Assembly: GCA_039588275.1 (NCBI GenBank)
Contig: JBDHAC010000003.1
Span: 17,707 to 81,706 of the forward strand
Reading direction: 5' to 3'
From: Gemmatimonadota bacterium
GTDB lineage: Bacteria; Gemmatimonadota; Gemmatimonadetes; Palauibacterales; Palauibacteraceae
Length of the DNA stretch: 64,000 nt
The position numbers were made by a program, and so were the translations under genes. The notes under the pieces are model-generated. The model was not told the DNA's origin and did not search any database. It saw only the letters and a program-made list of their open reading frames with translations. Below, one piece after another: positions 8,898 through 57,896 of the stretch. Position 1 is the stretch's first letter; every line of letters starts with the position of its first letter.

Positions 8898-8907
8898 GCG
8901 AACGACG

Positions 8908-13421: not shown

Positions 13422-13436
13422 TTCGGGGAGGTCGTC

Positions 13437-14458: not shown

Positions 14459-14766
14459 CCGGTCTGCCGCCGCTCGGTCCCGAAGCGCTCGTGCTGAGCG
14501 CGATCCTGTTCGTGATCGGCGTGGGCGGGGTACTCCTGCGCCGGAACGCGATCATCGTGTTCATGTGCATCGAGCTGATGCTCACCGCAGTCAATCTGAG
14601 CCTCGTCACCTTCTCCAGGGTCCACGGCGTACAGGGGCAGCTGCTCGTCTTCTTCGTGATGGCAGTGGCGGCGGCCGAGGCCGCCGTCGGGCTCGCGATC
14701 ATCATCGCGATCTTCCGGCACTACGAGGTCGTGGATCTCGACCGCTTCCACCTCCTGAAATGGTGA
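14455..14766 (+). CDS. nuoK: NADH-quinone oxidoreductase subunit K
   Basis: 103 aa with three TM helices, [14 protein letters not shown] overlap with nuoJ. Confidence 0.85.
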
Positions 14767-14773
14767 TGGGAAC

Positions 14774-16849: not shown

Positions 16850-16853
16850 AGAC

Positions 16854-18512: not shown

Positions 18513-18513
18513 G

Positions 18514-40501: not shown

Positions 40502-41421
40502 GTATCCTCGGGCGCGTCACGGCGACCCGGATTCGGGAACGCGTCGCGACCGGTCTGGTACTGGGCGGCCTGACCGGGAGCGCCGGGTGCGCCCCGGATG
40601 AAGCGACGCCCACCGCCGGGCCCGAGGTCCTGCGCGAGGGCGTCGACATGGTGATCGTGGACATGGATCACTACCTGTCGCGGCTCGGTATCCGACGTGC
40701 GCGCCTGCTGGCCGACACGGCCGAGTACGTCAGTGAGAACGAGATCCACCTCAAGCCCGTCGAACTCGTCTTCTTCGACGACGAGGGCCGCGAGATCTCG
40801 GTCTTGATCGCGGACTACGGCGTGTTCGACGAGGTATCCGAGGACATGGAAGCGAACGGCAATGTCGTGGTTCTGGATCGGCGGGACGACCGGAAGCTCG
40901 AGACCGAGCAGATTCGCTACACCAAGGAGGAAGATCGCCTGTACGGCGACAGCCCCTTCGTGATGGAGAGCAACGGAGGGCGTACCATCCACCAGGGAGA
41001 CTCGTTCGAGGCGGATCCGGGGCTCGACGACGTCATCATGTGGGGCCCGGGCGGGCGTTCGGAGCCTCGCATCGACACGCTGACGGTGGAACCGTTGGAT
41101 TCGGGCGCGGACGCGACGCCGGATTCGCTGCTCGAAGTGGACCCGGATTCTCCGGCTGCGGAGGCGCCGGACTCTCTGGCTGCGGAGGCGCCGGACTCTC
41201 TGGCAGCAGAGACGCCGGATTCTCTGGCTGCCCGAGATTCTACGTCCGCGGACTCGACCGCGACCGCTCGGGACACGGCAGCCCGCGACACCACCTCTCG
41301 GGACACGACCACCGTCGCACCGGACTCCACGGCGAGGGACATGGCGGGCCGCGACACCACCGCCCACCGCTCGACGACCTCGGTAAGACGCCGGGAGCAA
41401 GCCGGCCGCGACGCCGGCTGA
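40498..41421 (+). CDS. lptC: LPS export protein LptC homologue with repetitive C-terminal tail
   Basis: N-terminal anchor. OstA/LptC-like fold region (HLKPVELVFFDDEGREISV...). Positioned between kdsD and lptA. Confidence 0.6.
   Translation: MSILGRVTATRIRERVATGLVLGGLTGSAGCAPDEATPTAGPEVLREGVDMVIVDMDHYLSRLGIRRARLLADTAEYVSENEIHLKPVELVFFDDEGREISVLIADYGVFDEVSEDMEANGNVVVLDRRDDRKLETEQIRYTKEEDRLYGDSPFVMESNGGRTIHQGDSFEADPGLDDVIMWGPGGRSEPRIDTLTVEPLDSGADATPDSLLEVDPDSPAAEAPDSLAAEAPDSLAAETPDSLAARDSTSADSTATARDTAARDTTSRDTTTVAPDSTARDMAGRDTTAHRSTTSVRRREQAGRDAG
41143..41238 (+). repeat. four 24-nt tandem repeats (ccggaYtctctggctgcggaggcg) encoding PDSLAAEA units in the lptC tail
   Basis: Direct reading of units at 41143, 41167, 41191 and 41215. 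Confidence 0.8.
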
Positions 41422-41429
41422 GATGCGCG

Positions 41430-43622
41430 ATGCCGGCGCTTGAATCCGCGACGCTAACGGTCCGCGCACGAGCCACGGCCGCATGTGGCGGATTTGCGCT
41501 CGCGGCGCTGCTCATCCCCACTTCGCTCGCGGGGCAAGGCACGCAGCGTGGTAGCTGCACCCTGATCTGGGAACCGACCACCGCGGACACGCGCAGCGTC
41601 AGCACCCGCGAGGGGCAGGACGCGTACGTGACGCATGTGAGCGGCGGGATGCTGTGGACGTGCGGTACGGCCACGATGCGCGCGGACAGCGCAGTCAAGT
41701 ACGACCTGGCCCGCCGCGTGGACCTGATCGGGAACGTGCGCTATCGGGATACGATCCGCACCCTGGAGTCGGTATACCTCACCTATTTCGAGCTCGATGA
41801 CCGAGTCATCGCTACCGACAGCGTCCACTTGACGCGGCTTGTCGACGGCTCGACGCTGACGGGGCCCCGAGTGGAGTTTCTGCGGGCGGTGACGGGCGTG
41901 GATGAAGAGACGATCGCGACCGGCCGGCCCCACATGGTGCTTTACCCGGAAGGAGATGACCCTGGCCCGCCGTTCGACGTCGACGCGGACCGGGCCATCT
42001 TCGCCGGGGAGGAAGAGGCGCGCGCGTTCGGGGATGTGATCATCACCCGACCTGACCTTCGCGCCGAGGCTGACTCCACCACCTTTCGCATCCCCGAGGG
42101 GACGGGGGTCTTGTACGGATCCCCTCGGGTGGAAGCCGAGACTATCACTCTGCGCGGCGACACCATCCGGACCGGCTTCGAGGACAACGTGTTGCGGGAC
42201 GTGCATGCGCTCGGCCGAGCGCATGCGCAGGGCGAGTCGTTCGAGGTCCGGTCGGAGCGCATCGACGTCGCGGTAGAGGACGACGAGGTGGAGGCAGTGT
42301 GGGCCCACGGTGCGGGCATGGCGGAAGCCATATCCGGGGACCAGCACCTGTACGGCGATTCGCTGCGCTTCGCGATGTTCGAGGGTCGGCTCGACACCAT
42401 CAACGCGGTCGGCCGAACTGCGGCTGTCCAGGGCACCGGGCCGGCTCGCTTCGAATTGGAGACGGCGACCGTTCCCGAGACCGAGTCGGGCGATGAGGCT
42501 GCCGTCCCGCCCGCCGCGGACTCGATCGGCGTCGCGGAGCCGGTGGCCGAAGACTCGGTGCGCGCCCCGGACCCGGTCGTGGAGGATTCGGTCCGCCTGC
42601 CGGAGCCGATGGCCGAAGACTCGATCGGCGTCGTAGAGCCGGTGGCCGAAGACTCGGTGCGCGCCCCGGAGCCGGTCGTGGAGGATTCGGTCCGCACACC
42701 GGTCCAGCAACCCTTCGAGGCGGCCGAGGCGGTTCCGCTGGAGGAGGACCCGGGCGAAGGTGCCACACCCACCGTGGCCCGCGGCGTGGCCGACGAGAGC
42801 GTGGCAGGCGAGGCGAATGCCGACACGACCTCCCGGGCGGAGCCCGACCGATCCGACGAGGTATCGAGGTTGCGTCTGCCCACCGAAGAGGACTCCAATT
42901 GGGTGAGCGGAGATACCCTGTACGCGATCTTCGAGCGCACCCCGCGAGCGGCCGGGCCGAGTCCGCCGGAGAGCACGCGGGCAGCCCCGATTCTCCCGGA
43001 CAGCGCAGGGGCAGCCCGGATTCTCCCGGACAGCGTCATCGCCATCCCGGTTCCGACCGACAGCGCGGTCGCCGTGCCGGCCGAGCCGGACTCCACGGCC
43101 GACCCCGTCTTGGAGCGACTCACGGTTATCGGTCACGCGCGCTCCCTGTACGCGCAGGTCCGTGACACGGCCGCAGCCAATCGACCCTCCCGCAATTACA
43201 TGATCGGATCGCGGATAGACATCTTCTTCCGCGACGGGGAGCCTGAACGGGTGGAAGGTACGGACGCCATCGGTCTATACCTGGAGCCGCTCGAGACGCC
43301 GGAGAGCCAGGCCCCCGAGACCGGCGCGGTCCCGGCGCCGCAAGACACGACGGGCACCGGCGCCCGCGAAGACACGACGAGTGTCCGTGTTCGCGAAGAC
43401 ACGACCCAGGTCTCGCAACCACCGGACTCGAGCGGAGGTGTGCCGACGCGTCCTCGGGAGAGCGGTGCGCGCTCCACCGCGAGCGTGACGAACTCGGCCG
43501 CTCGAGACGGCCGTCGGGATCCACCCGCGAGAGATTCGGTGCAGGGCAAGAGGTCTGGAACCGCTGCATCCCGAGCGTCTCGCATGCGGTCGGGGCCACC
43601 ACTGTCGAGGATCTTTCCATGA
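41430..43622 (+). CDS. lptA: LptA/OstA-N domain protein with very long low-complexity repeat extension (about 730 aa)
   Basis: Signal peptide. OstA-like N-terminal 170 aa. Positioned between lptC and lptB. Confidence 0.6.
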   Translation: MPALESATLTVRARATAACGGFALAALLIPTSLAGQGTQRGSCTLIWEPTTADTRSVSTREGQDAYVTHVSGGMLWTCGTATMRADSAVKYDLARRVDLIGNVRYRDTIRTLESVYLTYFELDDRVIATDSVHLTRLVDGSTLTGPRVEFLRAVTGVDEETIATGRPHMVLYPEGDDPGPPFDVDADRAIFAGEEEARAFGDVIITRPDLRAEADSTTFRIPEGTGVLYGSPRVEAETITLRGDTIRTGFEDNVLRDVHALGRAHAQGESFEVRSERIDVAVEDDEVEAVWAHGAGMAEAISGDQHLYGDSLRFAMFEGRLDTINAVGRTAAVQGTGPARFELETATVPETESGDEAAVPPAADSIGVAEPVAEDSVRAPDPVVEDSVRLPEPMAEDSIGVVEPVAEDSVRAPEPVVEDSVRTPVQQPFEAAEAVPLEEDPGEGATPTVARGVADESVAGEANADTTSRAEPDRSDEVSRLRLPTEEDSNWVSGDTLYAIFERTPRAAGPSPPESTRAAPILPDSAGAARILPDSVIAIPVPTDSAVAVPAEPDSTADPVLERLTVIGHARSLYAQVRDTAAANRPSRNYMIGSRIDIFFRDGEPERVEGTDAIGLYLEPLETPESQAPETGAVPAPQDTTGTGAREDTTSVRVREDTTQVSQPPDSSGGVPTRPRESGARSTASVTNSAARDGRRDPPARDSVQGKRSGTAASRASRMRSGPPLSRIFP
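42519..42716 (+). repeat. two 99-nt tandem copies, each made of three 33-nt sub-repeats (11-aa DS[VI]RxPEPVAE units), in lptA
   Basis: Copies start at 42519 and 42618. Identity is near-perfect over about 78 nt. Confidence 0.8.
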
Positions 43623-44582: not shown

Positions 44583-46052
44583 GTGAGCGGAATGCGACCC
44601 GGCCTCCACACGGGCCTTCGAATGAAACAAGAGTTGAAGGTGAATCCTCGCCTGTATCAGGCGATGGACCTTCTCTATATGCCCCTCCTCGATCTTCAAC
44701 AGCACCTCAAGCAAGAGCTCGTCAACAACCCGTTCCTCGACCTCGTCGAGCCGGGCGAGGACGAGTTGAAGGAAGAAGCCGAGGAAAAGGAAGACCCCGA
44801 AGAGGAGGAAGTCGATTGGGAGGAGATCCTGCTCAACGGCTTCGATGCGGGGGGACGGCGCGCGGAGTACGAGGAGAAGGAGTACTTCCGACCCACCCCG
44901 GCCGCGACGCGGGATCTGTGGGACCACCTGTTCGATCAGCTCACGTTGATGAAGCTGGTTCCGCGCGAGGTGCTGATCGGCGAGGAGATCATCGGCAACA
45001 TCGACCGGGAAGGCTTTCTGACCTGTTCGCTGGGGCAGATCGTAGAGTCGGTGAACAACTATCTCGCGGACCCGGAAAACCCGCTCGTCCGTGAGGCGGA
45101 GGAGGCCGAAGAGGAGATCAATCTCGAGTCGGTCACCACGGAGGAAGTGGAGCGGATGCTCGGCATGATACAGGGCTTCGATCCCAGCGGGATCGCGGCT
45201 CGCGATCTGCGCGAGACGTTGCTCTTGCAGCTCCGAGACCGAGGCGAGGAGGACACGCTGGCGTTCCGGATCGTCCGCGATCACTTCGACGAGTTGGTGA
45301 ATCATCGTTGGAGCGAGCTCTCGAAGGAGCACGGCATCTCGCCGCAGGAAGTCCAGAGCGCTGCGGATGAGATTTCGAAGTTGGACCCGAAGCCGGGGCT
45401 CAAGTACTCGGACCTGTCCGACGCCTACGTGATTCCCGATCTCGTCGTCGAGAAGATCGACGGCCAGTATTACGTCTTCCACAACGACACCTCGCTGCCT
45501 CGCCTCAAGCTCTCGCGCTCCTATCGCGAGGTCGCGCAGGACCGAGGCAAGTTCCAGGGCGAGAACAAGACCTTCATCTCGAAGAAGCTCAACAGCGCCC
45601 AGTGGATGATCCAGGCGATCGAGCAGCGCCGGCAGACCATGCTGAAAGTGATGAACTTCATCGTCGACCGGCAGCGGGACTTCTTCGAGAAGGGCGTCGA
45701 GCACCTGCGCCCGCTCACTCTCCGCGAGGTCGCCGAGCACATCGACATGCATGAGTCGACGGTGTCGCGGGTCACGAACGAGAAGTACGTGCAGACACCT
45801 CGTGGCGTATTCCCACTCAAGTTCTTCTTCTCGAGCGGGCTGTCCACCGACTACGGGGAGGATGTGTCGGCCCGCGGCGTGCGGGCGCAGATCAAGAAGC
45901 TCGTGGGAGAGGAGGATTCCACGAGCCCGCTCACGGACCAGGCCATCGTCGACATCCTGAAACGAGACGGCGTACAGATCGCGCGCCGAACGGTGGCAAA
46001 ATACCGCGACCAGCTCGGGATCCTCTCCGCTCGCATGCGCAAGCGCGTATGA
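44583..46052 (+). CDS. rpoN: RNA polymerase sigma-54 factor
   Basis: N-terminal LKQELKVNPRLYQAM. C-terminal RpoN box ARRTVAKYRDQLGI. aggagg RBS 6 nt before GTG. Confidence 0.9.
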   Translation: MSGMRPGLHTGLRMKQELKVNPRLYQAMDLLYMPLLDLQQHLKQELVNNPFLDLVEPGEDELKEEAEEKEDPEEEEVDWEEILLNGFDAGGRRAEYEEKEYFRPTPAATRDLWDHLFDQLTLMKLVPREVLIGEEIIGNIDREGFLTCSLGQIVESVNNYLADPENPLVREAEEAEEEINLESVTTEEVERMLGMIQGFDPSGIAARDLRETLLLQLRDRGEEDTLAFRIVRDHFDELVNHRWSELSKEHGISPQEVQSAADEISKLDPKPGLKYSDLSDAYVIPDLVVEKIDGQYYVFHNDTSLPRLKLSRSYREVAQDRGKFQGENKTFISKKLNSAQWMIQAIEQRRQTMLKVMNFIVDRQRDFFEKGVEHLRPLTLREVAEHIDMHESTVSRVTNEKYVQTPRGVFPLKFFFSSGLSTDYGEDVSARGVRAQIKKLVGEEDSTSPLTDQAIVDILKRDGVQIARRTVAKYRDQLGILSARMRKRV

Positions 46053-47134
46053 CCGAAGCGGCCGCGGACGAACGATCCGTACCAGCGGCTCCCCCTTCCC
46101 ACCCGGTCTCGGCTCCAGATGTCTCGCGCTCCGAGACCCCGCCTGCGAAGGCACCGCAGGTGACCGCGGCCTCCTCGCCGGCCCCCAGGGTCTCGATCGT
46201 GATCCCGGCGTTCAACGAAGCCGAGAACATGCCCGAGCTCTTCGACGAGCTCGCCGGAACCATCCGTGAGCACGACCTTCACGCCGAGATCATCCTCGTG
46301 GACGATGGTTCGACCGACGGCACGCTGACCGCGGCTCGCCAGGCGACCGAGGCAGCAGACTTGCGGGACGTCACGCTGCTCCAGCACCGGCGCAACCGAG
46401 GCAAGACGGAGGCGCTGATCACGGCCGCACGCGAGGCACGGGGCGAGTATCTGGTGCTGTTCGACGCCGACCTGCAGCATTCGCCGCAGGAGATCCCACG
46501 CTTCGTCGAGCGCCTGGACTCGGGCGTGGATGTCGTCGCCGGTCGTAAGGTAGGACCGTACGAAAAGCGACTCGTATCGGGCCTCTACAATTGGCTCGCG
46601 CGGAAGATCTTCCGAGTCCCGGCTCGAGACCTGAACGCCATGAAGGCGTTTCGCGCCGAGGTCCTGGATCGCATCCACCTACGCCATGATTGGCACCGGT
46701 ATCTCGTGATCCTGGCGCATGCCGAAGGATACGAGATCGGGGAGATGGACATCCGGCTATACCCGCGCCGACACGGGGAGCCCAAGTACTCCGGCCGTCG
46801 GCGAATCCTCGTGGGAATCCTGGACCTGCTGGCCGTGTGGTTCCAGCTCGTGTTCAGTCGCAAGCCCATGCTGTTCTTCGGCGTGACCGGACTGGGGCTG
46901 TTGGTGGCGGGCGGGATCACGGGCGCGGTAGCGCTTGTCCTCCGCTTTGCCTTCCAGCTCGGCTTTCGACCCCTGCTCACGCTGGTCCTGCTGCTCGTGA
47001 TGTCCGGGCTAGTTCTTTTCGTGCTGGGCTTCCTGGCGGAGTTGATCGCGGGGCTGCGGGGGGAGATCGAGGAGCTAAGACGAGAGCGTCGTGAGGGGCG
47101 CTGGCGGGTGGGGACCGGCGACCGCCAGGACTGA
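46049..47134 (+). CDS. GT2 polyprenol-phosphate sugar synthase (GtrB/ArnC/Dpm1-like) with C-terminal TM helices
   Basis: VSIVIPAFNEAENM...LVDDGSTDGT motifs. Confidence 0.75.
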   Translation: MTEAAADERSVPAAPPSHPVSAPDVSRSETPPAKAPQVTAASSPAPRVSIVIPAFNEAENMPELFDELAGTIREHDLHAEIILVDDGSTDGTLTAARQATEAADLRDVTLLQHRRNRGKTEALITAAREARGEYLVLFDADLQHSPQEIPRFVERLDSGVDVVAGRKVGPYEKRLVSGLYNWLARKIFRVPARDLNAMKAFRAEVLDRIHLRHDWHRYLVILAHAEGYEIGEMDIRLYPRRHGEPKYSGRRRILVGILDLLAVWFQLVFSRKPMLFFGVTGLGLLVAGGITGAVALVLRFAFQLGFRPLLTLVLLLVMSGLVLFVLGFLAELIAGLRGEIEELRRERREGRWRVGTGDRQD

Positions 47135-48676
47135 GTGAGCGACGATCCGAAGGCGGACCCGGGGAGTTCCCGCCGCTCGCGCTTCGGGTGGACGGCGGCG
47201 GGTCTCGCCACCCTGCACGCGGTGGTCGGGTTGCTCCTCTTCGAGCCCACGCTCTTTCCGGGCGGCGACAACGCAGGCTATCTGATCCTCGGCGATTCAC
47301 TGAGAACGGGTAGCGGATACCGAGACCTCTACCTGCCAGGGTCCCCGCTCCACGCCAGGTATCCCCCGCTGCTGCCGTCGCTTCTAGCGCTCCTCGGCAC
47401 GCTCGGCGGCACCCATCTCGCCAAGATCGCCATGCTAGCCTGCACGTCGCTCGCGGTCTGGGTCACGGCGATCCTGGGCCGCCGACTCGTTGGAGATGGC
47501 CCCGCTCTATTCGCAGCGGCGCTACTGGCCATCAACCCGACGTTGCTCGAGTACGGGCACTACATCCTGTCCGAGGCCCCCTTCGTGTTGCTGGTCGTAC
47601 TGGCGTTGTGGGCGTCGCAGCGCGACGACCGTCAGGGGGCGGTACTGGCCACCGTCGCTGCGGTCGGTGCGTTCGCCACGCGTACGGCGGGACTTACCGT
47701 GCTACTGGCGCTCCCGCTGAGCTGGGTGGCCCGAAAGTCCTGGCGTCGCGCCGCCTGGGGAGGCATCGTGGCGATCTCCACGCTCGCGATCTGGGGACTC
47801 TACCAGCGCTGGGCCGCGCCGGAGCAGCCGGGCTACTTACAGGAACTCGTGCTCATCGACCCCTACACCCCCGAGGCGGGCTCGGTGGGCCTTACCGGAC
47901 TTGCCTTGCGCGCGGCGGAGAACCTCTGGGCGTACGCGAGCCGCGTCATCCCGCAGACTGCGATCGGCACGGAAGGAGCGGCCACACCTCTGGTCGCGAT
48001 CTTCGGGCTCACGCTGGCGGGGCTCGCGCTCGCTGGCTGGGCGATGCGCACCCGCAAGCCGCTGGACCCCCCGGAGATCTTCGTACTGCTCTATGTGGGG
48101 CTGATCGCGATCTGGCCTCAGGTCTGGACCGATCGGCGTTTCCTGCTCCCGCTCCTTCCGATGCTCACGCTGTTGGCCCTCGGCTTCGTCGCCAGCCGGG
48201 GCGACCGCGCGCGGCGCTGGGCGCCGGCCTTACTGGCGTGCGCAATCGCGCTCCCCTGTCTCGTGTGGGTTGTCAAACGGGTGCCCGCGCGCGTTGAATG
48301 CGTCGCGATGTATCGTGCGGGCCAACCGTGCGATATTCCGGCGTTCGCCAGCCTATACGAAGCCGCCCGCTGGGCCCGTGACAGCACGCCCCCCGATGCA
48401 ATCATCGCCAACCGGAAGCCGCGGCTGTTTTACTGGTACTCCCGCCGGCAGGGTGACCTGTACCCGTTCTCGACCGACGAAGATATCGTGCTCGGCGGGC
48501 TCGAGCGCATGGGTGCGGACTTCGTTGTCGTCGACCAGGTGAGTGGCACCACGGGACGTTATCTGGTCCCGGCCATCCAGGCCCGGCAGCACCGTTTCGA
48601 GCCTGTATACCAGGGAGGGTCCCCACCGACCTTCGTGTTTCGGATGCTGCCGTCGTCTCCCGTGGCCGTAAAATGA
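47135..48676 (+). CDS. polytopic membrane protein, putative GT-C fold glycosyltransferase (ArnT/PMT-like)
   Basis: About 11 TM helices. First periplasmic loop with an acidic/aromatic motif. Stop-start coupled to the upstream GT2 gene. Confidence 0.4.
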   Translation: MSDDPKADPGSSRRSRFGWTAAGLATLHAVVGLLLFEPTLFPGGDNAGYLILGDSLRTGSGYRDLYLPGSPLHARYPPLLPSLLALLGTLGGTHLAKIAMLACTSLAVWVTAILGRRLVGDGPALFAAALLAINPTLLEYGHYILSEAPFVLLVVLALWASQRDDRQGAVLATVAAVGAFATRTAGLTVLLALPLSWVARKSWRRAAWGGIVAISTLAIWGLYQRWAAPEQPGYLQELVLIDPYTPEAGSVGLTGLALRAAENLWAYASRVIPQTAIGTEGAATPLVAIFGLTLAGLALAGWAMRTRKPLDPPEIFVLLYVGLIAIWPQVWTDRRFLLPLLPMLTLLALGFVASRGDRARRWAPALLACAIALPCLVWVVKRVPARVECVAMYRAGQPCDIPAFASLYEAARWARDSTPPDAIIANRKPRLFYWYSRRQGDLYPFSTDEDIVLGGLERMGADFVVVDQVSGTTGRYLVPAIQARQHRFEPVYQGGSPPTFVFRMLPSSPVAVK

Positions 48677-49920
48677 GAGCTCTCCACATCGTGACAGCGT
48701 TTCCTCGCCACGAGGATGACGTGATCACGCCCTGGCTCGGGAACGTATTGCTCGGTCTTCGAGACGCGGGAGTGGACGCAGAGGTGCTCGCGCCGGCGTA
48801 CCGGGGGGGCGGAGCGCGCGAATGGCGTGGGATTACCGTTCGACGGTTTCGATACGCTCCCGCCGCCCTCGAGACGCTGACCCACGACGAAACTACCCCG
48901 GACCGACTGAAGCACCGTCCGTGGTACGTCGGCCTTCTGCCTGGTTACGTTGTGGGAGGAGCCATGGCGGCCTACCGCGCGGGCCAGACGGTACCGGACG
49001 TCATCCACGTCCATTGGCCGGTCCCGCACGGACTGTTCGGAGCGATCGGTCAAGTGGCGTCGGGCGGCCGATCGGCGCTCGTCGCAAGCTACTACTCGGT
49101 GGAGCTCAAGTGGATCGAGCGACGGCTCCCTAGCCTCGTCCCCTTCTTGCGTTGGACGATCGACTGTGCCGACGAAGTGACCGCGATCTCGACAGCGACG
49201 GCCCGGGAAGTCCGTCGGCACGTGGAGCGTCCGGTCCGGGTCATCCCGTTCGCGACCGGACTCTCGGGGGAGGTCGTCGATATCGGGCGGGGAGCGCGCC
49301 CTGCGGAGCAAGCGCCCGAGATCCTGTTTGTGGGTCGACTGGTGGAGCGAAAAGGCGTCGAGGTGCTGGTTCGCGCGCTGGCCCGTTTGCGCGAGCGGCG
49401 GGACGTGCGGGTTACGATCGTCGGAGAGGGGACCTGGGAGCCGCGGATTCGCGCGGCTGTAAGCGCCGCCGGGGTGGAGGACGCCGTGACCTTCACCGGG
49501 CGCGTCGATGAGTCGGCACTCGTCGAGGCCTATGGACGCGCGAGTGTGTTCGCGCTTCCCGCCGTGGAGGACGTGAAGGGAGACACCGAAGGACTCGGCG
49601 TCGTTCTGCTCGAGGCAATACGGCTTGGGGTGCCGGTCGTCGCTTCCTCTGCGGGCGGCATACCCGATATCGTGGTCGACGGCGAAACGGGGTGGCTCGT
49701 ACCGCCGCGTGATGACCGAGCGCTCGCCCGCGCGTTGCAGGAGGTTATCGATGATCCGGAGGAGGCGCGTCGACGTGTGGCGCGCGGCCGCGAACGGGTG
49801 GAACGGCGGTTTTCGCCCGAGGGGGTCGTGGCCTCGCTCGTCGAGTGCTACGAAGCCGCCATCACTCGGCGCCGAGGGTTCCAGACCGGTGGCGATCAAA
49901 GTGCGCCGACGGCGTCCTAA
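48673..49920 (+). CDS. GT4 family glycosyltransferase (GT-B fold)
   Basis: EGLGVVLLEAIRLGVPVVASSAGGIPDIV motif. Confidence 0.75.
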   Translation: MRALHIVTAFPRHEDDVITPWLGNVLLGLRDAGVDAEVLAPAYRGGGAREWRGITVRRFRYAPAALETLTHDETTPDRLKHRPWYVGLLPGYVVGGAMAAYRAGQTVPDVIHVHWPVPHGLFGAIGQVASGGRSALVASYYSVELKWIERRLPSLVPFLRWTIDCADEVTAISTATAREVRRHVERPVRVIPFATGLSGEVVDIGRGARPAEQAPEILFVGRLVERKGVEVLVRALARLRERRDVRVTIVGEGTWEPRIRAAVSAAGVEDAVTFTGRVDESALVEAYGRASVFALPAVEDVKGDTEGLGVVLLEAIRLGVPVVASSAGGIPDIVVDGETGWLVPPRDDRALARALQEVIDDPEEARRRVARGRERVERRFSPEGVVASLVECYEAAITRRRGFQTGGDQSAPTAS

Positions 49921-49939: not shown

Positions 49940-50848
49940 ATGGTCAAGCTCGCGGTCGTCCGATGGTACCTCAACGCGCTGTACCTGCGTGCGCTCCGGC
50001 TGCGAGACCGCTGGCTGCGTCCCCGCGCCTTGAACGCCATCGACGCCAACCTGGCGAGCTCGCTGTTCACGGAGTACGAGTCGATCGCGGAGGAGCTCTC
50101 GCACGTGGAGCGGCTGCAAAACCGCGAGTTCAAGGTCTTCTCGCAGAATGGGGAAGATGGCCTGCTTGCCTACATCTTCTCCGAGATCGGCACGACGAAT
50201 CGGCGGTTCGTAGAATTCGGAGTCGAGGACGGACGGGAGTGCAATTGCGCCAATCTCGCGATCCACTTCGGCTGGAGCGGCCTGATGCTCGAGGCCAACC
50301 CGGCCGATGTGCACCGGGCCCGGGTCTTCTACGGCAGGCTGCGAGGGGAGGATGGCCCGAGGGTGGCCGTGGAGGAGTGCCTCGTGACGATCGAGAACAT
50401 CAACGAAGCGATCGCGGCGGGCCGGGTGACGGGTGAGATAGACCTGCTCTCCATCGACATCGACGGGAACGACTACTGGATCTGGGAGGCGATCGATGTC
50501 GTCAGCGCGAGAGTGGTGGTCATCGAATACAACGCGTCCTTCGGCAGACGCTCCATCAGCATCGCGTACGATCCGGGGTTCGTTCGCTTCAAGGCGCACC
50601 GCAGCGGCTGGTACCACGGCGCGTCGCTCGCAGCCTTGACGAAGCTCAGCGACCGTAAGGGATACGACCTGATCGGCACGGACAGCTTTGGCGTGAATGC
50701 TTTCTTCGTTCGGCGGGATGTGCCGAAGGGGAGACTGGAGGCATTGGAGGCGGACGAGGCGTACCGACCGCAGCGCAAGCGTATGAAGGTCGCGACGCTG
50801 GAGCAGCAGTTCGCGGCGATCGAGCACTTGGCCTACGTTGACGTCTAG
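49940..50848 (+). CDS. FkbM-family methyltransferase-like protein
   Basis: FVEFGVEDG...LEANP and IDLLSIDIDGNDYWIWEAI blocks resemble FkbM domain motifs. Confidence 0.4.
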   Translation: MVKLAVVRWYLNALYLRALRLRDRWLRPRALNAIDANLASSLFTEYESIAEELSHVERLQNREFKVFSQNGEDGLLAYIFSEIGTTNRRFVEFGVEDGRECNCANLAIHFGWSGLMLEANPADVHRARVFYGRLRGEDGPRVAVEECLVTIENINEAIAAGRVTGEIDLLSIDIDGNDYWIWEAIDVVSARVVVIEYNASFGRRSISIAYDPGFVRFKAHRSGWYHGASLAALTKLSDRKGYDLIGTDSFGVNAFFVRRDVPKGRLEALEADEAYRPQRKRMKVATLEQQFAAIEHLAYVDV

Positions 50849-50869: not shown

Positions 50870-53293
50870 GTGACAGATGAAGGAGACGTCGATCGAAATG
50901 CTCACGTGGGTGAGTCGGGGGAGGTGAAGGGGGGGGCACGCGGGCACGGGAAGGCCATCCTGTGGGTGTTCCTGGGTGGCGCCGCCCTGGCGAGCGTGTG
51001 GTTCTACCGCGAGTTCGTCTTCTTCGCGGAGCGGCTCATCTATGGCTCGGACATGCTGTTCGAGGGGATTTCCCTTCGGCGGTTCTACGTAGATGAGATC
51101 CGAGCCGGTCGCGGTGTTCCGCTGTGGATCCCGCACGTATACGGCGGAATGCCCTTCGTCGCGCTGCTTCCCGGACCGATCTTCTACCCGACGACTCTCC
51201 TGTACCTCCTCATGCCGCTCCATCGAGCCATTGGCTGGACCTTCGTCCTGCACACGTTCCTGAGCGGCGCCTTCGCGTATTTCATGGCCCGATCCTTCCG
51301 CCTGCGGCCGAGCTCGGCGGTAGTCTGCGGCGTCTCGTTCATGTTCACCGGGTACGTCACGTCACACCTGTTCGGAGGGCATGACGGACGGATGTTCGCC
51401 ATGACCCTGATCCCCCTGGCCATCGGCTCGCTCCAGCGAGGACTCGATACCGGCGAAGCGCACTGGTTCGGAGCGCTCGCCCTCGTCGTGGCAATGCAGA
51501 TCTTCACGCCGCACATGCAAGTGATGTATTTTTCATGTCTTGCACTGTCCCTATTCCTCCTGTTCCATCTCCTGGTCCGGGTACCTCGCGCTCCGGAGGG
51601 GGGGCGGAGGGGGGCGTACGCGCGACCGCTGGCCGGCTTCGCACTCGCATTGCTGGCGGCGATCGCGATCGGTGGGTTACAGCTGTTTCCGACGCTGGCA
51701 CTCCTTGACGACGCGACGCGCGCCGCGACCGAGCGGGGGTACGAGTTCGCCGCCTCTTACGCGTTGCCTCCCCAGGAGCTTACGGCACTCTTTCTCCCGG
51801 ACCTGGTCAGCTCGCTGCCGGGGCGGTACTGGGGCCAGAACCCACTCAAGCTCCACACGGAGTATCTGGGTGCGGTGCCGTTGGCGCTGGCGCTCTTCGC
51901 CATTGCGTCAGCATTTCGCCCCGGACTGAGCCGCGAGCACCGCCGCGTCATTGGCTTCCTGGTGGTGGCGAGTCTCCTGGGGGTCCTCTTCGCACTCGGG
52001 GCGGCGACGCCCGTCCACCGACTCGCGTACGTCGTATTGCCTATGATCCGGAGCCTGCGGGCGCCGGCGATGATGCTCGGGCCGGTCTCGGTCTTCATCG
52101 CGCTATTGGCGGGCTTCGGGTGGGAGGCCGCGGCGGCGCGGCGGGAGACTCCAGGGGATGAGGGCCCGTCGGTGTCGTGGGTCGCCCTCGCCCTCCTCGC
52201 GGGTCCCGTCTTGCTGCTCGGCGTTGTGGCGGCCGTCAATCCGCGCGGACTGCTTCGCTTCGTCCTCCTCGAGTGGTATCCGACCGGGTGGCCGCGCGAA
52301 CCTGACCCGGCGCTCGTGCCGGCCCTGCGCGCCAACGGAATGCTGCTCCTGGGAGGGTTTGGCCTTGCCTGGGGAGTCGCCCTCGCGGTGTCCCGTCGTA
52401 AGGTCAGCGAGCTGGCGCTCGTGCTCGTCGTCCTGTTTGCCGTCGCGGACCTGTGGCGGGTCGATTCACGGTACCTGGAGGTGCGCGACGCCGGGGAGCT
52501 CGAAGCCGATTCCGTTCTCACGGCGCTCACGAGTGAGACCAGCCCCGGGGAACGAGTGTGGGCGCCCGCCCTCGCCGGCTCAGTGCCCAACTATCGACCG
52601 AACCGCCTCATCTACCACGGCGTCTCGTCGGCGACGGGTCGTCAGAAGTTCCTTCTTCGCCCTTTCGCGAGGCTCGTGGGAGGCATCCAGCCGGACGAGG
52701 GACTGCTCCGGTATCCTGCGCTTCTCGGACTACTCGACGTTCGGTACCTGATCACGCCGGGGGTCCAGAATGGCCTCGACCTCGTCGCGGAGGCGGGCGG
52801 CCGCTACCTGTATCGCCTTCCGGACCCACCCCACGCCTTCTTTCCGGTGGACATCGCCGTGGTCGACGATACGGCGGAGGCCCTCGCGCGCACCCGCTCG
52901 AACCCGGACCCCATGACCCTCACAGTCGTAGAGGCCAGCTCGGGTAGGGAGCCGCCGGCGCCGGGGCGTGGACGCGCGTCGATCGTGGGTTACGAGCCCG
53001 ATAGGATCGAACTCGGTGCGGAGGTCGAGCTCCCCGGACTGCTGGCGGTGAGCGAGATCTTCCACCCGGGCTGGCGCGCGTACGTGGACGACGAGGAGGT
53101 CCCGGTATGGCGGGTCAACGTGGCGTTTCGGGGCGTCGAGGTGCCCGCCGGGACGCATCGAATCACCTTCGAGTACGATAGCCGTTCCTACCGCCTGGGG
53201 TTCTGGTTGAGCATGCTGACGATGATCGGGGTCGGTGTCGTGATGTGGCTTTCGTGGCGCAGGTCTCGCCTCGCGTCGAAGAGCGCGATTTGA
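50870..53293 (+). CDS. YfhO-family polytopic membrane protein (GT-C type glycosyltransferase)
   Basis: 807 aa with about 13 TM helices and a C-terminal periplasmic domain. The N-terminal region is typical of YfhO. Confidence 0.6.
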   Translation: MTDEGDVDRNAHVGESGEVKGGARGHGKAILWVFLGGAALASVWFYREFVFFAERLIYGSDMLFEGISLRRFYVDEIRAGRGVPLWIPHVYGGMPFVALLPGPIFYPTTLLYLLMPLHRAIGWTFVLHTFLSGAFAYFMARSFRLRPSSAVVCGVSFMFTGYVTSHLFGGHDGRMFAMTLIPLAIGSLQRGLDTGEAHWFGALALVVAMQIFTPHMQVMYFSCLALSLFLLFHLLVRVPRAPEGGRRGAYARPLAGFALALLAAIAIGGLQLFPTLALLDDATRAATERGYEFAASYALPPQELTALFLPDLVSSLPGRYWGQNPLKLHTEYLGAVPLALALFAIASAFRPGLSREHRRVIGFLVVASLLGVLFALGAATPVHRLAYVVLPMIRSLRAPAMMLGPVSVFIALLAGFGWEAAAARRETPGDEGPSVSWVALALLAGPVLLLGVVAAVNPRGLLRFVLLEWYPTGWPREPDPALVPALRANGMLLLGGFGLAWGVALAVSRRKVSELALVLVVLFAVADLWRVDSRYLEVRDAGELEADSVLTALTSETSPGERVWAPALAGSVPNYRPNRLIYHGVSSATGRQKFLLRPFARLVGGIQPDEGLLRYPALLGLLDVRYLITPGVQNGLDLVAEAGGRYLYRLPDPPHAFFPVDIAVVDDTAEALARTRSNPDPMTLTVVEASSGREPPAPGRGRASIVGYEPDRIELGAEVELPGLLAVSEIFHPGWRAYVDDEEVPVWRVNVAFRGVEVPAGTHRITFEYDSRSYRLGFWLSMLTMIGVGVVMWLSWRRSRLASKSAI

Positions 53294-53330: not shown

Positions 53331-54323
53331 GTGACCGAGCTCGGGCACAGCGAGAGGGAGACCGCGGGGTCCCGGCTCCGTGACCGGAGGCGGGTACGGT
53401 TGGCTACGGGGCTCTTCCTCCTGCTCGCGCTGGTCGCCGTAGCGGTTGCCATACGAGGCGAATGGGCCGCGTGGACCACACTCGAGGACGACACGCGCAC
53501 CTATGGGTGGAGAGTGTCCGTTCCATTCCTCGCGGTGGCACTCGGGTGCGGAGTCTCGGCCCTGTTGGCGTCAGGCGCGCTGTGGGCCGCCCTGTTTCGG
53601 TCGGCCGGAGGACGTACCGGATGGCGTGAGGCGATCGCGGCCTGGTTGGGCTCCAACCTCGGAAGGTACCTGCCGGGCAAGTTCTGGCAGCTCGCCAGTC
53701 TCGCGGCGTACGTGCGAGCTCGTGGCGACTCCGGAGCCCGTGCGCTCACGGTGTCCTTGGCCCTTCAGGCCGTGGTCCTCGCAGCGGGCGCAGCCGTCGC
53801 GGTGATCTTTCTTGGCGGCCAAGCGTTTGGCGCCGCGAGCCCCTGGACGATCGCCATCGCGGTCGCGGCCATCGCCTTGGCGCTCAACCCGGCGGTACTT
53901 CGGCGGTCTATCGTCTGGGCAGGGTACCTCCTTCGCGAGGAGCCGACCCCCGAGGTGTCGGGACTCGGCTATGGCGTGCTGCTCCGCGCGGCAGCATGTG
54001 CCTTTGTGCTGTGGGGCTTGTATGGAGTGGGCTTCTGGGCCCTATGCAAGGGTCTGGTCGGAGGGAGCCCGGTGTCCGTCTCGATCGCAGCGGCCGTGTT
54101 CGCAGCCGGATACATCGTCGGTTACGTCGTACTCCTCGCGCCCGGGGGCATCGTGGTTCGCGAAGGTGCGATCGCCGGCCTCCTCGGTGCGGTGGCCGGT
54201 GTCCCGCTGGGACCAGCGACGGCGATCGCGCTCGCGGCGCGGCTGTGGACCACCGTGGCCGAGCTTCTCGCGTTCGCGCTCGCCGCTGGTGCCGGGCTGC
54301 GGCGACACTCCGGATCGCGCTAG
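53331..54323 (+). CDS. flippase-like lysylphosphatidylglycerol-synthase-TM (UPF0104) domain membrane protein
   Basis: About 8 TM helices. The family is frequently paired with Dpm1-like GT2 genes. Confidence 0.55.
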   Translation: MTELGHSERETAGSRLRDRRRVRLATGLFLLLALVAVAVAIRGEWAAWTTLEDDTRTYGWRVSVPFLAVALGCGVSALLASGALWAALFRSAGGRTGWREAIAAWLGSNLGRYLPGKFWQLASLAAYVRARGDSGARALTVSLALQAVVLAAGAAVAVIFLGGQAFGAASPWTIAIAVAAIALALNPAVLRRSIVWAGYLLREEPTPEVSGLGYGVLLRAAACAFVLWGLYGVGFWALCKGLVGGSPVSVSIAAAVFAAGYIVGYVVLLAPGGIVVREGAIAGLLGAVAGVPLGPATAIALAARLWTTVAELLAFALAAGAGLRRHSGSR

Positions 54324-54333: not shown

Positions 54334-55134
54334 ATGGAGGCAGAAGGGGGTGGGCGCGAGAGAGTGCCGGGAACCGACGGAGAACGATCGACCGTGAGCG
54401 GCACGATCCGGGAGAGCGCGGGTCGAGGGCTCGTGATCCTGCCTACGTACGAGGAGGTGGAGAGTCTCGGTCAGATCGTACCGCGCATCCTGGCGCTGGA
54501 TCCCCGCCTCGATATTCTGGTGATCGACGATGCGTCGCCTGACGGCACGGGAGAGCTGGCGGACCGTTTGGCTTCGGAGGAGCCCAGGGTCTCCGTTATG
54601 CACCGCGAGGGGAAACTAGGACTCGGGTCGGCTTACATCGCCGGCTTTCGGACCGGGCTGGAACGCGGGTACGACCTCCTGTTCGAGATGGATGCGGATG
54701 GTTCGCACGACCCTGAGCACCTCGTTCCGATGATCGCGGCGACGGAAGAGTTCGACGTCGTCGTCGGATCGCGCTACCTGCGCGGCGTGAACGTGATCAA
54801 CTGGCCGATGTCCCGTCTGCTGCTCAGCTACTACGCCAACAAATACGCCCGGGTGGTCACGGGCCTGGCTCTGGCGGACCTGACGAGCGGCTTCAAATGC
54901 TTCAAGCGCGAAGTGCTGGAGGCGATCCGCCTCGAGAAGGTCGGCTCCACCGGATACGCGTTTCAGATCGAGATGAACGTTCGAGCCTGGAAGCGGGGTT
55001 TCCGCGTGGGCGAGATCCCGATCGTGTTCGTGGATCGGGAAGCGGGGCAGAGCAAGATGTCGGGGGCCATCGTCCGCGAAGCGATATGGCGGGTGTGGGC
55101 GCTGCGCTTCAAGTCGATGTTCGGGAGGCTATAG
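54334..55134 (+). CDS. GT2 polyprenol-phosphate hexose synthase (Dpm1/Ppm1-like, soluble)
   Basis: VILPTYEEVESL...VIDDASPDGT...DADGSHDP motifs. ATG at 54334 lies inside the longer ORF. Confidence 0.75.
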   Translation: MEAEGGGRERVPGTDGERSTVSGTIRESAGRGLVILPTYEEVESLGQIVPRILALDPRLDILVIDDASPDGTGELADRLASEEPRVSVMHREGKLGLGSAYIAGFRTGLERGYDLLFEMDADGSHDPEHLVPMIAATEEFDVVVGSRYLRGVNVINWPMSRLLLSYYANKYARVVTGLALADLTSGFKCFKREVLEAIRLEKVGSTGYAFQIEMNVRAWKRGFRVGEIPIVFVDREAGQSKMSGAIVREAIWRVWALRFKSMFGRL

Positions 55135-56180: not shown

Positions 56181-57896
56181 GTGAGCGGCGAGCCGATCTT
56201 TCTCTTCCTGATCCAGGTGGTCGTCGTCCTCAGCCTCGCCAGATTGTTGGGGGAGGTGTTCCGGTGGTTCAGGCAGCCGCCCCTGGCGGGCGAGATCCTC
56301 GCCGGCGTCCTTCTCGGGCAGACCGTGCTCGGCCACCTCGCGCCCGATCTGTTCGTGGCGCTGTTTCCGCCGGACGAGCTACAGGAAGCGATGTTCGGCG
56401 TGACCGCCGAGATCGGGATCCTCTTCCTCCTGCTCGTCGTGGGTCTCGAGGTCAACGTGGCCTCGGCCTGGAAGATGCGGAACCAGACGTTCACGGTCGC
56501 CGTCACTGGCGTACTGGTGCCGTTGGCGCTCGGGACCGCGGTCGCCTGGCTCCTCTACGACCAATGGGTCGAGGTCCCGACGCCTCGCCTGGCGTTCGCC
56601 CTCCTCGTCGGAGCAGGTGTCGCGATCACGGCGATAACCGTGGTCGCACGGCTCCTCTTCGACCTCAAGATCATGAAGTCCGACCTCGGGCTCTTCCTCA
56701 TCTCGGCGATGGCGCTCAACGAGCTGCTCGGGTGGGCGGTTCTCGCGGTGGTGCTCGGTCTCGTTGGAGCGGGAGCCGCGGGAGAGGGGATGGATGGCCA
56801 CGGACTCGCGTGGACCATGGTCGGGGTCGTGCTCTTCGCCGCGTTCGCTCTCACCGTGGGCCGCTGGCTCGCCACACGGGCGCTTCTGTGGATGGATCGG
56901 GCGGAGCTACCCAGCCCAGCCGCCCCGCTCTCGTTGGTCGTTTGCTTCGGTCTCATAGGTGGCATCGTGACGGGCGCGCTCGGGATTCACCCCGTCTTCG
57001 GATTCCTGATCGCCGGGATCATGGCCAGCGACCCCAGAGCTCTTTCCGAGCATACGCGCGCGATCATCGAACAGATGGTGGAGGCCATCTTCGTGCCGCT
57101 CTTCTTCGCGGGGATCTGCCTGCGGATCGATTTCGTGAGCGATTTCGACACCGTCACCGTGTTGTCGGTGACCGCGCTCTCCATCGTGGGCAAGTTTGTG
57201 GGAGCGGGTTTGGGAACGCTCATGGTTCGGATGCCCGCGGCGGACCGGCTCCCGGTCGCGATTGCCCATATCCCTGGCGGTCCGATGGGTGTGCTCCTCG
57301 CCAGCGTGGCGCTGGAAGCCGGGGTGATCGGGCCCCAGATGTTCGTCGCCCTGGTGATCGCCTCGATCGTCTCCGCACTTCTGGTGGGGCCCGCGTTCAC
57401 CCGGCAACTCCGGCAGGCCGAGACCCAGGACGTGTCGGCCTACATTGCGAAGGATCGCGTCGTGAGGCTGAGGGCGGCCTCGCGCGACGAGGCGATCGAG
57501 ACGCTCGCGGGCGTGGCCGCCGGGGCGCCCGGAGCGCCGGGATCGGACGTGATCCGCCGCGCCGTCGCGGCACGTGAAGCGACGATGGGAACGGGAGTGG
57601 GGAAGGGGATCGCGATCCCGCACGCGCGCATCCCGAACCTGAAGACGCCGATCATAGCGATCGGGATCTGCAGGGAGGGCATCGAGTGGGACGAGGTCGA
57701 CGGGAAGCCCGCGCACCTCATCTTCCTCGTGTTGACCTCGAGCAGGGACGAACGCGACACGCAGCTGAGGATTCTGGCCCAGATCGCGCGGTGCTTCTCC
57801 GATCCCCAACGGATGCGCGACGTGGTCGACGCCGTCGACACGGAAGGTGTGTGGGGGTGTCTGCAGGCCTCGCTGCAACCGGCGGCGCTAGGCTGA
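56181..57896 (+). CDS. CPA2 cation/proton antiporter fused to C-terminal PTS EIIA type-2 (PtsN-like) domain
   Basis: Na+/H+ exchanger TM domain (about 400 aa), followed by ...GTGVGKGIAIPHARIP... (EIIA-Ntr active-site His motif). Confidence 0.75.
   Translation: MSGEPIFLFLIQVVVVLSLARLLGEVFRWFRQPPLAGEILAGVLLGQTVLGHLAPDLFVALFPPDELQEAMFGVTAEIGILFLLLVVGLEVNVASAWKMRNQTFTVAVTGVLVPLALGTAVAWLLYDQWVEVPTPRLAFALLVGAGVAITAITVVARLLFDLKIMKSDLGLFLISAMALNELLGWAVLAVVLGLVGAGAAGEGMDGHGLAWTMVGVVLFAAFALTVGRWLATRALLWMDRAELPSPAAPLSLVVCFGLIGGIVTGALGIHPVFGFLIAGIMASDPRALSEHTRAIIEQMVEAIFVPLFFAGICLRIDFVSDFDTVTVLSVTALSIVGKFVGAGLGTLMVRMPAADRLPVAIAHIPGGPMGVLLASVALEAGVIGPQMFVALVIASIVSALLVGPAFTRQLRQAETQDVSAYIAKDRVVRLRAASRDEAIETLAGVAAGAPGAPGSDVIRRAVAAREATMGTGVGKGIAIPHARIPNLKTPIIAIGICREGIEWDEVDGKPAHLIFLVLTSSRDERDTQLRILAQIARCFSDPQRMRDVVDAVDTEGVWGCLQASLQPAALG

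Follow-up and report, generated by a model that had tools for sequence, protein, structure and literature searches.

A predicted lipid-sugar synthase and a divergent GT-C-fold membrane protein are encoded back to back in a conserved gene cassette of Gemmatimonadota

We analyzed a 64,000-nucleotide stretch of DNA with 66% GC from a Gemmatimonadota bacterium (GenBank assembly GCA_039588275.1, contig JBDHAC010000003.1, positions 17,707 to 81,706 of the forward strand; hereafter the window) with regard to two adjoining genes, which encode a membrane-anchored glycosyltransferase of family 2 (GT2a) and a polytopic membrane protein of 513 amino acids (aa). A preliminary description of this DNA had compared the pair with GtrB/GtrC and ArnC/ArnT and had proposed that the second protein is GT-C-like. 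The features of the pair, in window coordinates, are as follows:

46049..47134, plus strand: GT2a, predicted polyprenyl-phosphate sugar synthase (ATG start, 361 aa)
47132..47137, plus strand: junction TGA/GTG, at which the GT2a stop (TGA, 47132-47134) directly abuts the GT-C start
47135..48676, plus strand: predicted GT-C-fold glycosyltransferase of a divergent PMT_2-clan subfamily (GTG start, 513 aa)
47267..47272, plus strand: codons of D45-N46 in the first-loop motif FPGGDNAGY, D45 being the predicted catalytic or acceptor-binding Asp
48290..48673, plus strand: C-terminal alpha/beta domain (aa ~386-513), predicted to be periplasmic, with C389/C399 and NRKPxLFYW

The TGA of the GT2 gene had been placed directly before the GTG of the membrane protein gene, and these coordinates were confirmed in the sequence. 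The two open reading frames (ORFs) share one reading frame and are divided by the TGA alone, so that GTG 47135 is simply the earliest possible start. It is likely the true start of the GT-C gene, since the next in-frame start codon would cut into the first transmembrane helix (TM1), the N-termini of homologues are similar in length, and an AGGA is read from the sequence 4 nt upstream of the GTG. Both ORFs show a coding-type codon profile, with a GC content of 0.81 and 0.82 at the third codon position (GC3) and of 0.45 and 0.53 at the second (GC2) for GT2a and GT-C, respectively. The ATG of GT2a overlaps the stop codon of the preceding rpoN gene (ATGA), and the gene that follows, encoding a glycosyltransferase of family 4 (GT4), overlaps the 513-aa ORF by 4 nt. 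Starts and stops that overlap or abut in this way indicate that the genes are packed as a single operon.

Of 80 Gemmatimonadota loci, 75 have enough flanking sequence, and in 60 of these the GT-C gene is directly preceded by the GT2a gene; in the other 14 loci with a neighbor only the GT4 gene of the cassette, with or without one further gene, stands between the two. The 62 adjacent junctions, for which the nearest start was picked heuristically, show a 4-nt overlap in 26 cases and a zero gap, as in the window, in 6. The juxtaposition of GT2a and GT-C is not due to chance. We rejected the possibilities that the in-frame TGA is read through or that the two genes are fused across it, because the relatives mostly show a 4-nt overlap in another frame, or short gaps. 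The likeness to the organization of GtrB/GtrC and ArnC/ArnT holds for the pairing of a synthase with a GT-C enzyme, but not for the gene order of Escherichia coli, where arnC and arnT are not adjacent (operon order arnB-C-A-D-T-E-F).

GT2a matches Pfam PF00535 (Glycos_transf_2; E 5e-30). Its best NCBIfam matches, ArnC (4.5e-30), PgfS (1.9e-22) and AglJ, span the full length of the protein and all lie far below the equivalog cut-offs; against the ArnC equivalog NF007986, GT2a scores 104.7 bits, and the cut-off of 529 bits is not reached. Among PDB sequences three ArnC structures match best (9hwj, E 2.4e-28, with aa 44-337 on chain residues 6-299), and matches were also obtained to the Pyrococcus dolichyl-phosphate mannose synthase (DPMS) 5mlz (E 2e-20) and to the Synechocystis glycosyltransferase sll0501 (5eke, E 5e-13), which we take to be a GtrB homologue. 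The alignment to 9hwj runs through the C-terminal transmembrane hairpin, and hydropathy places two C-terminal membrane helices at aa ~272-340 of GT2a. The protein is 27% identical to E. coli ArnC, and its D139-A-D141, a DxD-type motif of the GT-A domain, aligns with the DAD of ArnC. By these matches GT2a is predicted to be a membrane-anchored polyprenyl-phosphate glycosyltransferase of the ArnC/GtrB/DPMS class, in agreement with the earlier proposal of a membrane-anchored GT2 of the ArnC type; it is not an ArnC orthologue, and the sugar that it carries cannot be read from sequence.

GT2a begins with a Pro/Ala/Ser-rich N-terminal extension of ~40 aa (46049-46180, plus strand), which relatives of 311-322 aa do not have, and translation from an internal GTG near 46160 would give a protein about as long as the homologues. 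Even so, the extended version is plausible, because relatives keep the ATGA overlap between the rpoN stop and the GT2a start.

For the 513-aa protein two alignments were used, one of 37 close relatives and one of 62 distant relatives (23-51% identity). PMT_2 is matched by 24 of the 37 close relatives at E ≤ 0.01 (best 2.9e-10), and a few of them match PMT, GT22, GT87 or STT3. The window protein also matches the NCBIfam models AZOBR_p60025 (8.9e-7) and LA_3751/2 (0.004), in each case with a score far under the cut-off. Since sequence alone could not place the protein, a comparison of folds was needed. The AlphaFold2 model, built on the alignment of the 37 relatives, has a mean predicted local distance difference test score (pLDDT) of 91.4 and a predicted template modeling score (pTM) of 0.90. 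When this model was compared with the PDB using Foldseek, the best 37 matches were all GT-C enzymes or their structural relatives, at a probability of 1.00 and a query TM-score (TMq) of 0.29-0.60. They are headed by AglB (5.7e-10), STT3, ArnT (1.8e-8), ALG12, DPY19 and PglB; further matches at probability 1.00 include AftA, AftD, Pmt4 and Emb, and rank 30 is held by a subunit of the glycosylphosphatidylinositol (GPI) transamidase. The best size-matched structure is ArnT 5f15, with a TMq of 0.58 and a target TM-score (TMt) of 0.56. The preliminary description had set a transporter assignment against its GT-C-like partner; transporters enter the list only at rank 38, with a probability of ≤0.25 and a TM-score of ~0.1, and thus as noise. 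The model indicates that the 513-aa protein has a GT-C fold.

Model helices, hydropathy and the positive-inside rule together predict a protein that starts in the cytoplasm, crosses the membrane with ~11 helices and ends in an alpha/beta domain in the periplasm. The near-invariant polar residues D45, K97, E147, R183, R259, N263, R335 and R427-K428 all fall on the predicted periplasmic side. Among the 62 distant relatives, C389 and C399 are both present in 24, both absent in 36 and discordant in only 2, a co-variation that would be expected for a periplasmic disulfide and that supports a periplasmic location of the C-terminal domain. Together, the paired cysteines and the periplasm-side polar residues support the predicted topology. 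The C-terminal domain also carries the near-invariant motif NRKPxLFYW (R427, K428, P429). When it was modeled in isolation (pLDDT 85.9), its best fold matches were the lumenal domains of DPY19 (3.4e-4) and STT3 (4e-3), and a weak match to DUF6798 was obtained for 12 of the 37 relatives.

The first-loop motif PGGDNAGYLILGD, quoted earlier as departing from the canonical DE, is present (47255-47287 translates to FPGGDNAGYLI), and the residues at this place are indeed D45-N46. D45 is found in all 37 close relatives and in 60 of the 62 distant ones; N46 is found in all 37 and in 52 of the 62, the others having S or D. In the AlphaFold2 model D45 comes right behind TM1, where the first loop helix begins. 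In an hhalign comparison of the 62-relative profile with an ArnT profile, D45/N46/Y49 fall on D31/E32/Y35 of ArnT (DExxY) and R/K75 of the family on ArnT K61, but at a probability of 8% these residue equivalences are tentative. The ArnT profile was shallow, as the matches listed for a search seeded with E. coli ArnT were only enterobacterial and at least 76% identical, and when the 37-relative profile was aligned by hhalign with the E. coli ArnT sequence alone, the result was a meaningless match of 20 columns. In a published comparison of GT-C enzymes the first Asp is retained without exception, while the second position of the motif varies, the pairs being D55/E56 in ArnT, D77/E78 in Pmt1 and D281/D282 in EmbB (PMC7801869). 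The DN pair is predicted to be a conservative variant of DExxY at the canonical position, which keeps the essential first Asp and would not represent a different catalytic design. The suggestion of a divergent or new GT-C clade can therefore be upheld in part: the protein belongs to a divergent subfamily of the PMT_2 clan, but does not represent a new clade at the level of the fold.

When 1.84 billion representative proteins, grouped into clusters at 50% identity, were searched with a profile, at least 1421 clusters gave full-length matches to the GT-C family at E ≤ 1e-30; at E ≤ 1e-3 the number rises to 19,050, and at this level the family grades into the PMT_2 superfamily. A tight subfamily with the motifs WTD[RQ]RFLLP and PGGDNAxY[ML]I is found essentially only in Gemmatimonadota. 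The closest relatives of the window protein are all from this phylum, including Candidatus Palauibacter, and 79 of the 80 loci from GTDB species genomes belong to Gemmatimonadota or to unclassified bacterial metagenome-assembled genomes; the lone exception is a 2.6-kb contig labeled Acidimicrobiia. Among the more distant members, those with a name belong to Candidatus Eisenbacteria, TA06 and WOR-3. The scan of the GTDB genomes was seeded with the 37-relative profile, the 62-relative alignment being too divergent as a seed; with a seed of close relatives, the distribution beyond Gemmatimonadota rests on a few cluster names and contigs.

Relatives are labeled by PGAP or UniRef as hypothetical, as glycosyltransferase family 39 protein, as RgtA/B/C/D-like or as ArnT-like. 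No NCBIfam model reaches its cut-off on the window protein and the 62 relatives, and one of the 62 matches PRK13279 (ArnT) at E 1e-4. Hallmarks of the subfamily are GGDNAxY, HxxYPP, WPxVW(T/S)xxRFLLP, a C-terminal RKPxLFY domain and a weak match to DUF6798, and several distant relatives carry C-terminal tetratricopeptide repeats (TPR), which is the TMTC architecture. The 513-aa protein represents an uncharacterized subfamily of a known superfamily with a known mode of action. One relative of 847 aa (P0139) was considered as a fusion of GT2 and GT-C, which would be Rosetta-stone evidence, and was rejected as it has no GT2 domain. Its additional N-terminal ~300 aa contain no Pfam domain, and the motif of the C-terminal domain occurs there a second time (IARKPRLFYL at aa 152-166, and again at 734-747); part of the protein may be duplicated internally, or a tandem gene may have been called wrongly.

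The pair is part of a seven-gene cassette that follows rpoN in the window. Its anchor and its other members are as follows:

44583..46052, plus strand: rpoN (sigma-54; Sigma54 domains), upstream anchor of the cassette
48673..49920, plus strand: GT4, predicted cytoplasmic glycosyltransferase of GT-B fold (PF00534, 9e-43)
49940..50848, plus strand: 302-aa ORF with a weak match to FkbM-type methyltransferases (PF05050, E 0.0027, below cut-off)
50870..53293, plus strand: YfhO-like protein of 807 aa, second predicted GT-C-type enzyme (PF09586, 7.7e-12; weak PgfM1/PgfM2 matches)
53331..54323, plus strand: LPG_synthase_TM (MprF flippase-like) membrane protein (PF03706, 9.6e-11)
54334..55134, plus strand: GT2b, soluble DPM1/PpgS-like GT2 with likely start ATG 54334 (PF00535, 6.7e-26)

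Upstream of rpoN the window contains kdsA, kdsC, kdsD, lptC, an lptA-like gene and lptB. The commonest order among the 80 Gemmatimonadota loci is kdsD, lptC, (lptA-like), lptB, rpoN, GT2a, GT-C, GT4, YfhO-like, LPG_synthase_TM-like and GT2b, and the order on the rpoN side is kept in four loci compared individually (L001-L004). GT4 is the downstream neighbor of GT-C in 53 of 73 loci. A methyltransferase gene lies between the GT4 gene and the YfhO-like gene in individual Gemmatimonadota loci, and the slot of the 302-aa ORF is filled in most relatives by a methyltransferase gene of the class-I S-adenosylmethionine (SAM) type, such as the Methyltransf_11/23/25 genes of L002 and L004. The NCBIfam matches of GT2b (AglJ, PpgS and ArnC) are all below cut-off. 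Literature searches on lipopolysaccharide (LPS) and glycosyltransferases of Gemmatimonadota returned nothing on the seven-gene cassette.

The 302-aa ORF itself was found by tblastn in 3 of the 80 loci only, where it stands between GT4 and GT-C; it may be a non-orthologous replacement of the class-I methyltransferase. The YfhO-like protein, the MprF-flippase-like protein and GT2b form a second possible lipid-sugar module, which is conserved in Gemmatimonadota and on a contig of Candidatus Eisenbacteria.

On this Eisenbacteria contig (L089; 28% identity) the order is GT2, GT-C, GT4, a UDP-GlcNAc-2-epimerase-type gene, LPG_synthase_TM, YfhO and GT2, and the cassette is not located beside lpt genes or rpoN. 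As the cassette is shared with Eisenbacteria, it is the cassette, and not the pair alone, that represents the conserved functional unit. Two further GT2 genes precede the cassette on the same contig (749-2818), one of which (239 aa) is followed by a gene for a small DUF2304 membrane protein and then by one for a TPR protein of 724 aa; the GT2/DUF2304 pair presumably resembles mycobacterial PpgS/Rv3632, the maker of polyprenyl-phosphate-GalNAc. Of two other distant relatives, one (L086) is encoded beside a GT2, Ugd, a short-chain dehydrogenase/reductase (SDR) of the epimerase/decarboxylase type and another PMT-type GT-C, and the second (L090) beside DegT, an acetyltransferase, a GFO-type oxidoreductase and a GT2. 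One distant relative has no GT2 neighbor.

We consider it quite probable that the pair provides the donor-making and the sugar-transferring parts of a lipid-carrier-dependent periplasmic glycosylation system of the Gtr/Arn/Pgf three-component type. GT2a, with its cytoplasmic GT-A domain and two-helix anchor, would take one sugar from its nucleotide-activated form and load it onto undecaprenyl phosphate (Und-P) at the cytoplasmic face of the membrane. The lipid-linked sugar would then be flipped to the periplasmic face, for which the MprF-flippase-like protein (53331-54323) is the sole candidate in the cassette and might act on the lipid-sugar or on the acceptor. There, by the chemistry known for its family, the GT-C protein would pass the sugar with inversion to an acceptor in the envelope and release Und-P. 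Such three-component systems, consisting of a polyprenyl-phosphate-sugar synthase, a flippase and a GT-C, have been reviewed (PMC11127046). The use of a polyprenyl-phosphate-linked donor by the GT-C at the extracytoplasmic face is suggested by the conserved adjacency to the gene of a polyprenyl-phosphate-sugar synthase, and the periplasmic site is implied by the cysteine pair.

The most likely product of the cassette as a whole is a single lipid-anchored glycoconjugate of the envelope, which it would assemble or decorate. We slightly favor a lipid-linked glycan as the acceptor, be it a GT4-primed glycolipid or lipoglycan or the LPS core/lipid A, as the cytoplasmic GT4, the flippase-like protein and the two GT2/GT-C modules suggest a lipid-anchored glycan, and the position beside kds and lpt genes in Gemmatimonadota suggests LPS. 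Periplasmic or membrane proteins are a clearly less probable acceptor, which the TPR-bearing relatives, the DPY19/STT3-like C-terminal domain and the weak PgfS/PgfM matches keep open, and some other acceptor is a little less probable again. The pair is not a resistance module that modifies lipid A with 4-amino-4-deoxy-L-arabinose (Ara4N).

Several observations weigh against the assignment of the pair to such a system. The window protein scores 20.9 bits with PMT_2 (PF13231; E 4.5e-4, aa 77-199), below the gathering threshold of 26.1, the 37-relative profile gave no match at E ≤ 10 against all PDB sequences, and the hhalign match to ArnT, with an E-value of 0.004 over 205 columns, has the low probability given above. 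No flippase of the GtrA, ArnE/F, SMR or MATE type was found among the cassette proteins in Pfam and NCBIfam scans, and the cassette contains no genes for nucleotide-sugar synthesis that would point to the donor. The second GT2 and second GT-C of the cassette make the pairing of GT2 with GT-C ambiguous, and a cassette gene parts GT2a from GT-C in 14 of the 75 loci, which indicates that direct translational coupling is not essential. Finally, the link to LPS rests on synteny, and since the Eisenbacteria cassette lies away from lpt and rpoN, this link is weaker than it first appears.

A more far-reaching proposal, which we regard as tentative and rather unlikely, is that the seven genes encode an undescribed pathway of the FCB group (Gemmatimonadota, Eisenbacteria, and probably TA06 and WOR-3) for a dedicated envelope glycoconjugate. 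A lipoglycan would be primed by GT4 in the cytoplasm, flipped by the MprF-like protein and extended by the two GT-C enzymes with sugars from the two lipid-sugar synthases, a route analogous to the assembly of mycobacterial lipomannan and lipoarabinomannan (LM/LAM). If this were true, the DN-motif GT-C would found a new GT-C family in CAZy, and in Gemmatimonadota the pathway would be a fixed part of the lptB-rpoN operon.

It is unlikely, although deserving of attention, that the 513-aa protein is a protein glycosyltransferase of the PMT/TMTC/Pgf kind, which would transfer a single sugar from Und-P-sugar to Ser/Thr (or Trp/Asn) of periplasmic or membrane proteins. Its sequence affinity is to the PMT_2/PMT families, its isolated C-terminal domain is closest to the lumenal domains of the peptide-modifying DPY19 and STT3, and the TMTC architecture recurs in several distant relatives; moreover, components of the Pgf system, which glycosylates proteins in streptococci, are matched by GT2a (PgfS) and by the YfhO-like protein (PgfM1/PgfM2), and the adjoining LptC and LptA-like proteins bear Ser/Thr/Asp/Pro-rich repeats. 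However, the matches of the C-terminal domain are weak (E 3e-4 to 4e-2), the window GT-C has no TPR or MIR domain, and many Gemmatimonadota that carry the cassette lack the LptC repeat extension. The GT4 and the flippase-like protein of the cassette also suit a lipid-linked glycan better than a protein acceptor.

A true ArnC/ArnT system appears improbable. Here GT2a would make undecaprenyl phosphate-4-deoxy-4-formamido-L-arabinose (Und-P-Ara4FN), or Und-P-galacturonic acid (Und-P-GalA) like RgtE, and the GT-C would load the sugar onto a lipid A phosphate or the LPS core and thereby shift the charge of the outer membrane. ArnC is the top NCBIfam and PDB match of GT2a and ArnT the best size-matched structural match of the GT-C, whose periplasmic side carries many conserved Arg/Lys residues. 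The cassette directly follows kdsA, kdsC, kdsD, lptC, the lptA-like gene, lptB and rpoN, with the overlap of the GT2a start and the rpoN stop; one distant relative lies beside Ugd and an epimerase/decarboxylase-type SDR, and UniRef names some relatives RgtA/B/C/D-like. On the other hand, GT2a stays far below the ArnC equivalog cut-off (104.7 against 529 bits), no ArnT model matches the window GT-C, for which hhalign reached only 8%, homologues of arnA, arnB, arnD, arnE and arnF are absent from the cassette and from the scanned ORFs of the window, and the Eisenbacteria cassette is unlinked to lpt/kds. The strict Ara4N version is very unlikely, while a looser version with LPS as the acceptor falls within the lipid-carrier-dependent system that we prefer.

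There is also little probability that the adjacency has no functional meaning, in which case the GT-C would use another donor, such as an undecaprenyl-diphosphate (Und-PP)-oligosaccharide, and GT2a would feed the YfhO-like enzyme. The top Foldseek matches are the oligosaccharyltransferases (OSTs) AglB and STT3, but their E-values and that of ArnT are less than two orders of magnitude apart, the TM-scores are equal, and the family consensus contains no recognizable WWDYG-type motif. The two GT2s and two GT-Cs leave the pairing ambiguous and GT2a and GT-C are apart in 14 of 75 loci; against this, in 80% of loci the genes are neighbors whose codons overlap or abut, which points to co-expression, and GT2 neighbors recur around distant relatives.

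The probability that the 513-aa protein is no enzyme and only looks like a GT-C, being in fact a transporter or a structural protein of the membrane, is negligible: the sequence-only evidence is weak (Pfam below threshold, no matches to PDB sequences), but transporters appear among the Foldseek matches only as noise, and the Asp at the catalytic position and the periplasm-facing polar residues are near-invariant at 23-51% identity.

Some further genes of the window concern the lipid carrier or the surroundings of the cassette. A 329-aa protein of PF04018 (60519-61508, minus strand; VCA0040-like, undecaprenyl phosphate translocase-like, DUF368; 2.8e-63) is encoded ~5 kb downstream of the cassette, and a protein of this type would recycle the Und-P that is freed by GT-C enzymes at the periplasmic face. 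Two genes after the cassette (56181-57896, plus strand), a protein is encoded that joins a Na+/H+ exchanger domain to a phosphotransferase system (PTS) EIIA-2 domain at its C-terminus (1.2e-25), and a gene with Na_H_Exchanger and TrkA_N domains occupies the equivalent place in locus L004. In Proteobacteria rpoN is followed by ptsN, which encodes EIIA-Ntr. If this parallel holds, the cassette would look inserted between rpoN and a PtsN-like domain fused to a cation transporter.

In-frame tandem DNA repeats are present at 41115-41231, 42519-42702 and 42966-43035 (plus strand), with periods of 24/48, 33 and 30, and encode low-complexity sequence rich in Asp, Ser, Thr, Pro and Ala in a C-terminal extension of LptC and in the LptA-like protein. 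LptC has 307 aa in the window versus 180-183 aa in L002 and L004, and the repeat regions are not conserved across the phylum. They would be periplasmic disordered regions, which are conceivable substrates of glycosylation. Farther upstream, a XerC/D-type tyrosine recombinase gene (32501-33421, plus strand) precedes the pyrG-kds-lpt block, and a nuo operon for complex I (6467-20094, plus strand) includes a fused 30-kDa/49-kDa (NuoC/NuoD-type) subunit.

These results do not overturn current understanding; they are of value for annotation and for guiding experiments. A family labeled mostly as hypothetical can now be named a GT-C glycosyltransferase, with D45 as a candidate for the active site and with signature motifs. 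The family marks a cassette that is conserved in a poorly studied phylum and its relatives, the product of which is probably a core envelope glycoconjugate. To our knowledge, the envelope chemistry of Gemmatimonadota is largely uncharacterized, and the cassette, located beside the LPS transport genes, provides a concrete genetic handle on it.

Lipid-carrier-dependent periplasmic glycosylation by GT2 and GT-C proteins is textbook knowledge, and the presence of two lipid-sugar/GT-C modules in one cassette is the only aspect that is mildly unusual. ArnC and ArnT, the latter of CAZy family GT83, carry out the Ara4N modification of lipid A in E. coli and Salmonella (structures 9hwj and 5ezm/5f15). 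As in that system, a GT2 with a C-terminal transmembrane hairpin would make the Und-P-sugar and a GT-C with a C-terminal periplasmic domain would transfer it; the window GT-C superposes on ArnT at a TM-score of ~0.57, and its D-N-x-x-Y is aligned to the D-E-x-x-Y of ArnT. In contrast, both window proteins remain below the family thresholds, and the comparison with the single ArnT sequence was null. The second motif residue is Asn in the window GT-C (N, S or D in the wider family) but Glu in ArnT, and ~11 membrane helices are counted as compared with 13. The cassette lacks arnA, arnB, arnD, arnE and arnF and instead contains a GT4, a methyltransferase, a second GT2 and a YfhO-like enzyme.

The Pgf system (PgfS, PgfM1, PgfE and PgfM2) and CsbB/GtcA/YfhO of Bacillus and Listeria likewise hold, within one locus, a GT2 synthase together with GT-C enzymes of the YfhO type and others, but the window proteins score far below the equivalog cut-offs, the host is diderm, and the 513-aa enzyme is PMT_2-like and not YfhO-like. 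The closest sequence family is formed by the PMT_2, family 39, RgtA-D-like and TMTC (GT105) proteins, and some distant relatives combine a GT-C with TPR as TMTC does; the window protein, which lies below the gathering score, is a borderline case for PMT_2, and its subfamily has its own hallmark motifs. O-antigen glucosylation by GtrA/GtrB/GtrC follows the same logic of synthase, flippase and GT-C, and there too the gene of the synthase immediately precedes that of the GT-C. The window cassette has no GtrA-, SMR- or MATE-type flippase but only an MprF-flippase-like candidate, and the system described here also differs from Gtr in not being phage- or serotype-associated: it is a core cassette that follows rpoN and is conserved across the phylum.

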